Source: a virus (Duplodnaviria; Heunggongvirae; Uroviricota; Caudoviricetes). Taken from it: DNA of 13,507 nt. Shown here piece after piece: positions 3,699-4,312 of this stretch; within the stretch, counting starts at the first letter, position 1, and each line of letters begins with the position of its first letter. The translations under genes and the position numbers were made by a program. The notes below the pieces were generated by a model that saw only the letters and a list, made by a program, of their open reading frames with translations, was not told the origin of the DNA and did not search any database. The stretch lies in the IMG/VR virus record IMGVR_UViG_2526164630_000014, positions 1-13,507 of that record; one strand, written 5' to 3'.

Positions 3699-3749
3699 TC
3701 AAATAAGTGGTTTGCTGCCTAATTTCATTTTCTGGCGACCAACACAAGT
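3699..3749 (-). pseudogene. Remnant 3' end of a lambda/phi21-type N gene (recombination scar)
   Basis: Directly after the stop of the P22-type N gene, in another frame, the minus strand encodes TCVGRQKMKLGSKPLI*, matching the C-terminus of lambda/21-type N proteins as I recall them. Confidence 0.45.
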
Positions 3750-4132
3750 CATCTTGCTGTCAGTTGTTTTGATTTCCGGTAGCCTGCCGCGTAAAGAGCT
3801 ACGTTTGGAAGACATACACCAGTTTCTGGTTGCTTATGTCCAAACTCATTCGCGTACACAATGGCCGCTCGCTCCAGATTGCGTCTGTATTCTTTCTGTT
3901 GCCAGATCACGTCCTGTGCCATGAACTTAATTGGCTTAGCGTCTTCTATGCGCTCAGGCGTTTCGTGAGTACCTTTAGCCTGAATCTGCGCTCTGCTTAG
4001 AGTAGGGCGGTGTAATACTTCTGAACTTATTGCTTCTTCGCGGGCCAGCACGCCGTTAGCTAATGCCTTTGCCTTTAAACGCTCACGACGACGAGAACGT
4101 GAATTGCCTTTGAACTGAGTTCTGCGTGTCAT
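3749..4132 (-). CDS. N: N-type transcription antiterminator (P22-like)
   Basis: 127-aa ORF with arginine-rich N-terminus (TRRTQFKGNSRSRRRERLKAKALA) and C-terminus LPNVALYAAGYRKSKQLTAR resembling P22 N; strong SD AGGAGG; lies between pL/nutL and the early-left genes. Confidence 0.8.
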   Translation of the reverse strand: MTRRTQFKGNSRSRRRERLKAKALANGVLAREEAISSEVLHRPTLSRAQIQAKGTHETPERIEDAKPIKFMAQDVIWQQKEYRRNLERAAIVYANEFGHKQPETGVCLPNVALYAAGYRKSKQLTAR

Positions 4133-4297
4133 ATAGACCTCCTGATGAACTTTGGTGGTGTGGTAGGTGGGAGACCCATTTCGACCTGTTTCGGCCTACT
4201 TCAATTCGGCAATAGTCCCGCAGGCCTCGCCGCTTTACGTGCGACATATTCCCGTCCATGAACCCTTCACCACACCCCAAAGTTCACTTTGGTTATT

Positions 4298-4312
4298 GCG
4301 CTTTGTCAGCGC
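4298..4312 (-). promoter_or_regulatory. nutL boxB RNA hairpin (P22 type)
   Basis: Minus strand reads GCGCUGACAAAGCGC (5-bp stem, GACAA-type loop) in the leader between pL and N. No convincing boxA was found upstream. Confidence 0.55.

Follow-up and report, generated by a model that had tools for sequence, protein, structure and literature searches.

The 3′ End of a Phage 21-Type N Gene Retained Out of Frame Behind the N Gene of a 933W-like Lambdoid Early Region

The N Gene and Its nut Sites

The window, i.e., the whole stretch of 13,507 nucleotides analysed here, is an early region of the 933W/Min27/phi24B-like type (84% covered at 99.3% identity). The features surrounding its N gene are listed below, where (−) and (+) denote the strand.

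2131..3370 (−): conserved lambda/21-type left arm (ea10/DUF2528, cIII, kil, gam and others), from BLAST and a DUF2528 profile match
3367..3690 (−): next gene, 107 aa, phrog_1372; its start and Shine-Dalgarno are supplied by the island
3684..3751 (−): whole phage 21-homologous island, 68 nt, consisting of the N tail, then the Shine-Dalgarno, then ATGGAAG
3684..3690 (−): ATGGAAG, start of the next gene; in phage 21 it starts a 28-codon ORF preceding ral
3694..3700 (−): Shine-Dalgarno GAGGTGA, within the island
3699..3749 (−): out-of-frame (−1) remnant, last 16 codons and stop of a phage 21-type N gene, TCVGRQKMKLGSKPLI (codons 3749..3702, stop 3701..3699)
3749-3752 (−): junction J1, at which the P22-type end of N meets DNA of the phage 21 N tail, from aligned junction sequences
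3749..3814 (−): P22-type C-terminal module of N (CLPNVALYAAGYRKSKQLTAR and stop), from BLASTP to P22 gp24 and alignment
3749..4132 (−): N antitermination gene, 127 aa, an ORF with Pfam and phrog profile matches
4298..4312 (−): nutL boxB GCGCTGACAAAGCGC, identical to the P22 nutL boxB at 15 of 15 positions
7107..7115: boxA-like CGCTCTTTT, near nutR
7138..7152 (+): nutR boxB TCGCTGACAAAGCGA; its 5-bp stem is perfect and its loop, GACAA, is that of nutL

The 127-residue product of the gene at 3749..4132 matched the Pfam profile N_peptide (PF25694) with an E-value of 1e-15 and 58.5 bits, against a cut-off of 27.9, and the phrog_271 profile with an E-value of 9.5e-39. The gene is located between nutL and the ea10/cIII/kil arm as the first gene of the leftward (pL) early operon, and an arginine-rich motif, RSRRRER, occupies residues 12–18 of its product. 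The profile matches, the motif, the pair of boxB hairpins and the gene order together identify the product as a predicted lambdoid N antitermination protein. The 933W sequence is 98.8% identical to the N region at the nucleotide level (megablast against the phage collection), and the two proteins differ at a single residue. Antitermination has been measured for H-19B N (PMC3526286), whose 12-RSRRRER-18 motif (PMC3526286) is also present in the window N; the junction region described below matches the H-19B record as well. A search of PDB sequences with the window N gave no meaningful match.

Both nut sites possess the 5-bp stem and GACAA loop that characterize the boxB of the P22 nut sites, as the first-pass annotation had maintained, and the identity of nutL to its P22 counterpart is complete. 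No canonical boxA (of the CGCTCTTTA kind) was visible within the approximately 90 nt upstream of the nutL boxB (4313..4400, −), whereas nutR has CGCTCTTTT.

The N protein itself had also been described as P22-like, which is accurate for its two ends and not for its centre. BLASTP aligned P22 gp24 with residues 99–127 only, that is, with the last ~30 residues (70% identity, E = 1e-10), instead of the full-length protein. The arginine-rich motif resembles that of P22 when judged by eye (GNSRSRRRERLK versus GNAKTRRHERRRK), and this likeness is consistent with the identical boxB. The ~80 residues in the middle gave no alignment with the N proteins of P22, phage 21 or lambda, and are of the 933W/H-19B type. 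The window N is therefore best called, on present sequence comparisons, a 933W/H-19B-type N with P22-type ends, the C-terminal one comprising its last ~21–30 residues.

The C-terminal module at 3749..3814 is common to P22 gp24, HK620 N and the HK97/1717-type N. Phage 1717 is 97.7% identical to the window over 3685..3814, which comprises the last 21 N codons and the remnant, and yet its N is of the HK97-like type with a body that differs from that of the window N. This implies that N itself contains a further mosaic boundary, an in-frame one, at approximately 3814.

The Remnant and the Junction

The DNA directly past the N stop codon is CTTGTGTTGGTCGCCAGAAAATGAAATTAGGCAGCAAACCACTTATTTGA, and its −1 frame reads (M)TCVGRQKMKLGSKPLI followed by a stop. 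The same bases are read in frame in phage 21, running GTG ACT TGT GTT GGT CGC CAG AAA ATT AAA TTA GGC AGC AAA CCA CTT ATT TGA, where they are annotated as the end of the antiterminator gene. The remnant peptide agrees with phage 21 N at 15 of 16 residues, and it is identical to the commonest in-frame allele among the matches listed. At the nucleotide level, 3684..3751 (−) matched the 3′ end of phage 21 N (OL657228) at 67 of 68 positions (98.5%), with an E-value of 8e-25 by megablast against 2.3 Gb of phage DNA and 1e-29 in the pairwise comparison, and matched the 3′ end of HK544 N at all 68 (100%). The similarity to N 3′ ends on which the first-pass annotation hinged is hence present, as is the out-of-frame tail that it had noticed past the N stop, at 3699..3749 in the −1 frame. 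Its description of this tail as lambda/21-type can be narrowed: the tail of lambda N, TCSGRQKIKGKSIPLI, is clearly farther from the remnant in the DNA alignment, which indicates that the remnant is of the phage 21 type and not of the lambda type.

The segment thus matches the 3′ terminus of the phage 21 N gene, sits at the equivalent genomic position, lies outside the resident reading frame, and has kept none of the old gene's upstream part: when the phage 21 N region was compared with the entire window by pairwise BLAST, no other segment aligned. Judged from sequence, what follows the N stop codon is 51 nt of disused 3′ end from an N gene of the phage 21 type. No feature is annotated for the remnant in the GenBank records of H-19B, 933W, 1717, Stx2 II and HK022. 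Full-text searches of a literature library found no description of it there, and PMC9836094 mentions neither N nor nut.

The junction was mapped by aligning the window with 933W, 1717, ev207, HK620, P22, sal4 and phage 21, of which ev207, HK620, P22 and sal4 served as the reference for P22-type N genes that are free of the remnant. Representative sequences, with the stop or equivalent triplet set apart, are as follows.

ev207: ...GCGAGA TGA TAAATTC
HK620: ...GCGAGG TAA TTATGG
P22: ...GCGAGG TAA GGTATT
phage 21: ...GGGTG TGA CTTGTG
933W: ...GCGAGG TGA CTTGTG
window: ...GCAAGA TGA CTTGTG

The two sides meet at 3749-3752 in a microhomology of 3–4 nt, (G)TGA, which contains the N stop codon TGA (3749..3751); this stop codon thus lies within DNA that is common to the window and phage 21. 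Since both parents have just (G)TGA in common, the join at 3749-3752 appears to be non-homologous. Comparison with the scar-free P22-type N genes therefore confirms the exchange point that had been placed at about 3749, and together with the phage 21 identity it supports the term recombination scar. The scar had been taken to mark the replacement of the N specificity module. This does not hold, because the part of N that adjoins it is the P22-type C-terminal module.

The 68-nt Island and the Next Gene

Homology to phage 21 is lost on both sides of the island in the pairwise BLAST. On the left it stops at 3684, seven bases into the next ORF, and is back at 3370. From there the arm is conserved, with 97.2% identity to phage 21 over 2131..3370 and 98.3% identity to lambda over 2281..3370. 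An alignment of the region with the lambda, phage 21 and P22 genomes had been proposed as the check on the breakpoints, and it places them at 3749-3752, 3684 and 3370. The left arm had been characterized as otherwise lambda-like, which is borne out for 2131..3370. However, what remains of the old N is a 68-nt island, and the DNA at 3367..3690 between it and the arm is foreign.

The gene at 3367..3690 differs from the one at the equivalent position in phage 21, 933W and 1717. The Shine-Dalgarno and ATG are common to phage 21, 933W and 1717, and the genes beyond them diverge at once, so that the same island starts a 156-aa protein (L0079) in 933W and an 86-aa protein in 1717. The combination of the window N with the 107-aa gene was found in 3 of 5,426 complete E. 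coli genomes. The 107-aa protein gave no Pfam match and occupies the position of the small ORF and ral of phage 21. From this position it is a candidate accessory or anti-restriction gene.

Distribution and Reassortment

A query of 132 nt spanning the junction reached a coverage of at least 80% in 129 of 50,697 phage records and in 642 of 5,426 complete E. coli genomes. The identical junction is found in 933W, H-19B, 1717, HK106 and others. A scan of IMG/VR for the tail yielded at least 120 loci. Among the classifiable loci listed, at least 83 have phage 21-type sequence upstream of the tail, and at least 39 have a P22-type N end followed by the out-of-frame remnant. The junction was identical in 39 of these 39. 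A second scan, anchored on the junction with the tail left free, gave at least 116 loci with J1, a set that overlaps the 39 of the first scan. J1 was located behind either of two N bodies, the 933W type or the HK97/1717 type. Its presence in 129 phage records and 642 E. coli genomes indicates an old, inherited junction, and its identity in all 39 listed loci points to one ancestral event that spread later. The first-pass interpretation was essentially correct and too local: the scar is real, and the junction is a common and old one.

Flanking DNA was clustered for 113 listed loci, using 100–330 nt upstream and 0–200 nt downstream of the tail. This gave 13 upstream and 11 downstream clusters in many combinations, and the two main N types with J1 were joined to 5 and 6 different downstream genes among the listed loci; these counts come from IMG/VR contigs, which are phylogenetically non-independent. 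Most of the J1 loci listed have the standard tail, and several have another allele past its first ~20 nt. In the junction-anchored scan, such alleles among the matches listed were GRQKTKGKSIALI followed by a stop, GRQKQRGKSIPAYY... and ...KLLYE. The GRQKQRGKSIPAYY and ...LLYE alleles also end intact N genes among the matches listed in the comparison scan, and the polymorphisms ATG/ATA/ATT and GGC/GGT and the LLYE block are common to the coding and scar contexts. The other tail alleles behind J1 indicate that crossovers have occurred inside the scar. Phage Louie, which gave the most diverged match to the tail, was considered as a decayed scar and rejected, as it has an intact N with a lambda body and the ...LLYEG tail allele.

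The in-frame phage 21 tail was found on four kinds of N, namely lambda-type, phage 21-type, a third type (DDNARNRRRARRQ...) and an N with a P22-type arginine-rich motif, which indicates that the tail and the RNA-binding end reassort. The same C-terminus and scar on two N bodies, together with the in-frame fusion of P22-type arginine-rich motifs to the phage 21 tail, further indicate that the specificity part has been exchanged separately. In HK620 N (788..1060 of locus L128) and a common prophage N, the first ~64 residues are the same (MTVVITYLADDNARNRRRARRQ...KKAEE), and past them the proteins carry a P22-type or a phage 21-type C-terminus, i.e., a clean in-frame swap. One IMG/VR locus (L123) contains, at approximately 12380..12520, two copies of the tail end ~60 nt apart (...GGCAGCAAACCACTTATTTGAGGTGATATATGGAAG..., the second remnant starting from CTACCGCAAGCC...), which may have arisen by duplication or by unequal exchange in the linker.

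The same tail has also been left behind at other junctions. Some listed loci with phage 21-type upstream sequence have just 26–30 in-frame codons before a stop. A long tail scar was located behind the HK022-type nun gene and its terminator hairpin (the Nun protein matched chain N of PDB 6ALG with an E-value of 8e-68), and further long scars lie behind an 88-aa Zn-finger-like ORF and other ORFs. At one locus (L100), the long scar follows a P22-type N end and precedes an hkaQ-like gene. Because the junction points of the long scars differ, the N tail appears to have been spared by at least 4–5 separate replacements. The 88-aa C2H2/Zn-finger-like ORF (MTSKQVSYKCYCPLCGRKFSAKAAWKHINDYHPK...) ends 83 nt before the tail pattern at two IMG/VR loci (L088 and L055), and its product may be another non-N occupant of the N/nun position.

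Origin and Role of the Remnant

We interpret the remnant, with a probability of roughly 0.85, as the scar of a non-homologous replacement that is dead as protein-coding sequence here and has been kept as a short homology patch and as the start region of the next gene. The anatomy suggests an ancestor with a phage 21-type N followed by the small ORF and ral. An N gene with a C-terminus of the P22 type would have been joined by its end, non-homologously and on 3–4 nt of microhomology, into the interior of the old N tail. This join would have fallen one base out of frame, leaving the new N to end at a TGA in the DNA shared with phage 21, while the retained 68 nt still provide the next gene with its ribosome-binding site and start codon. 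Many lambdoid phages carry this piece, either as the true end of N or as a scar, so that it may act as a short homology patch. At 68 nt it exceeds the ~30 bp that is the minimal homology for Red and RecA recombination (PMC2327257); experimental background on mosaic recombination in lambdoid phages is available in PMC2327257 and PMC3945230. Across it, the N/immunity module to the right reassorts independently of the accessory position to the left.

The island thus appears to behave as more than an inert leftover, since it supplies the Shine-Dalgarno and start of the next gene and is probably an active crossover patch. This linker role is inferred from population patterns. The near-perfect conservation of the non-coding leftover could alternatively reflect selection for another function.

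A tentative and much less probable extension of this interpretation is that the last ~50 nt of lambda/21-type N genes are conserved mainly as DNA, as a selected linker for recombination and translation start where the N/immunity module meets the left arm, the tail being a largely dispensable C-terminus of N in some phages and untranslated in others. Lambda N lacking residues 81-107, 91-107 or 101-107 retained near wild-type antitermination in a single-terminator construct, and H-19B N lacking residues 121-127 was unaffected in antitermination (PMC3526286). The last 14 residues of lambda N are also dispensable according to a report cited in PMC3526286. In view of these deletion data, conservation of the tail may plausibly act at the DNA level more than at the protein level. 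The occurrence of the same sequence in coding and non-coding contexts, the at least 4–5 independent junctions that spare the tail, and the lambda N deletion 81-107 all fit such conservation. The variant types listed comprise 8 synonymous and 5 non-synonymous ones in the coding context, and approximately 5 synonymous, approximately 6 non-synonymous and one indel in the scar context; the independent variants are few in both and are compatible with neutral as well as with constrained evolution.

It is unlikely that the remnant is still used in translation, either because ribosomes that finish N re-initiate at the overlapping −1 start (AGAUGA here, AGGUGA in 933W) or because its 17-residue peptide is made. 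The remnant stop, UGA, is located inside the Shine-Dalgarno of the next gene, just as the N stop of phage 21 overlaps the equivalent Shine-Dalgarno, so that such a relay would preserve the translational coupling of phage 21 N to its next gene. Among the 116 J1 loci listed, the triplet overlapping the N stop is ATG in 64, GTG in 51 and ATA in 1, and in nearly all of them the frame of the remnant has no internal stop and terminates 9 nt short of the next ATG. However, the junction itself explains the overlapping ATG or GTG: GTG is the Val codon of phage 21, and the A/G alternation is the synonymous third base of the last Arg codon of N. No Shine-Dalgarno was found upstream of this −1 start, and the scar variants listed include Gly-to-Asp changes, an altered stop and one indel. 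The long scars behind nun, which follow a terminator hairpin and have no upstream cistron for coupling, are moreover equally conserved.

A cis-acting RNA or DNA element overlapping the old coding sequence, such as a terminator, a processing site or a small-RNA target, is very unlikely. Such an element would account for nucleotide conservation that is equally high in non-coding and coding contexts among the matches listed, but the tail alleles that replace the standard one behind J1 among these matches carry 17–23 differences. Rfam gave no match in the remnant, the scan of 3000..7600 at E ≤ 1 returning just two chance-level hits elsewhere, and no promoter-like or terminator-like site was found in 3684..3751. 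The RNA fold of 3670..3770 has a z-score of −0.35, with 72 of 200 shuffled sequences folding as well.

Still less probable is a programmed −1 frameshift late in N, by which some of the N molecules would acquire the phage 21-type tail. An open −1 frame extends 22 codons back from the N stop (ORF 3699..3815), and the tail is equivalent to the final part of the region with which N proteins of the lambda/21 type bind RNA polymerase (domain layout in PMC3526286). Nevertheless, the 66-nt overlap (3749..3815) contains no slippery heptamer X XXY YYZ in the N frame, no stimulatory structure is predicted (fold z-score −0.35), and there is no long A or T run for transcriptional slippage. The frameshifted product would also exchange the conserved P22-type C-terminus for unrelated residues, and would gain a tail whose counterpart in lambda N was largely dispensable in the three deletions mentioned above. 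That the likeness to the lambda/21 N tail arose by chance or convergence, for which nothing but the shortness of the segment speaks, is practically negligible and is refuted by the identities of 67/68 and 68/68 nt at E = 8e-25 in a 2.3-Gb database.

Relation to Known Systems

The replacement scar can be compared with several known arrangements. Phage 21 N (OL657228, CPT_21_50) and the HK544/HK542 allele share the same 68 nt, including the Shine-Dalgarno and ATGGAAG. In these phages the tail is in frame as the C-terminus of a working N, whereas in the window it follows a complete N with a different C-terminus and is shifted from the frame of that N by one base. 933W and H-19B have the same junction and remnant as the window; past the island, however, 933W has the 156-aa L0079 and the window the 107-aa phrog_1372 protein. 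P22 gene 24 resembles the window in the identical nutL boxB, the GACAA loop at both nut sites and the arginine-rich motif, but its stop codon is TAA, and the next gene, sieB, lies on the opposite strand; there is no phage 21 remnant, and the middle of the protein is unalignable. The leftover at HK022-type nun is likewise a non-coding phage 21-type tail at the left edge of the N/nun position with the same Shine-Dalgarno and ATG. It differs in having an independent junction ~40 nt further upstream in the tail and a terminator hairpin before it.

Other mosaic boundaries of lambdoid phages are the same in kind, with a sharp change at a gene boundary and a short conserved patch between unrelated, reassorting flanks; the patch in the present case is recognisable as the end of the displaced gene. 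Genome-comparison papers on HK97/HK022 and HK620 belong to the background of the modular-evolution picture, in which non-homologous joins are spread by homologous or homeologous recombination. The scar is accordingly a case of ordinary lambdoid mosaicism, whose exact sequence is already contained in the published 933W, H-19B and 1717 genomes, and the understanding of N antitermination or of lambdoid mosaicism is unchanged by it. It locates to the base a mosaic junction of medically relevant phages of the Shiga-toxin type, and offers a concrete case of a homology patch below 100 nt across which the immunity/N module and the neighbouring accessory position reassort. It also shows that N proteins draw on several RNA-binding modules and on a minimum of two C-terminal modules that can replace one another. 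For annotation, the short ORF at 3699..3815 should be regarded as a fossil and not as a gene.

Two further genes of the window lie downstream of cI on the cI strand, encoding a 285-aa NYN-domain protein (predicted RNase; 4640..5497, −) and a 113-aa DUF3024 protein (5646..5987, −), with a terminator-like hairpin after them at 4611..4632. They occupy the position of rexAB in lambda and of stk in 933W, and the pair may be a prophage-expressed defence or exclusion cassette. DUF3024 and NYN genes are also found in the Stx2a phage Stx2_EH0505 (LC616031 8500-16500, locus L133), where the immunity region is tandem and partly duplicated (1453..7357 of that locus). Leftward, a full cI (6650..7357) is followed by the DUF3024 and NYN genes and by an N with a P22-type arginine-rich motif and an in-frame phage 21 tail (4453..4878). 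Further leftward lie an IS3-family insertion (3079..4292), a truncated cI (2726..3010) and a 933W-type N with the J1 scar (1453..1836), so that both uses of the phage 21 tail occur in one phage.
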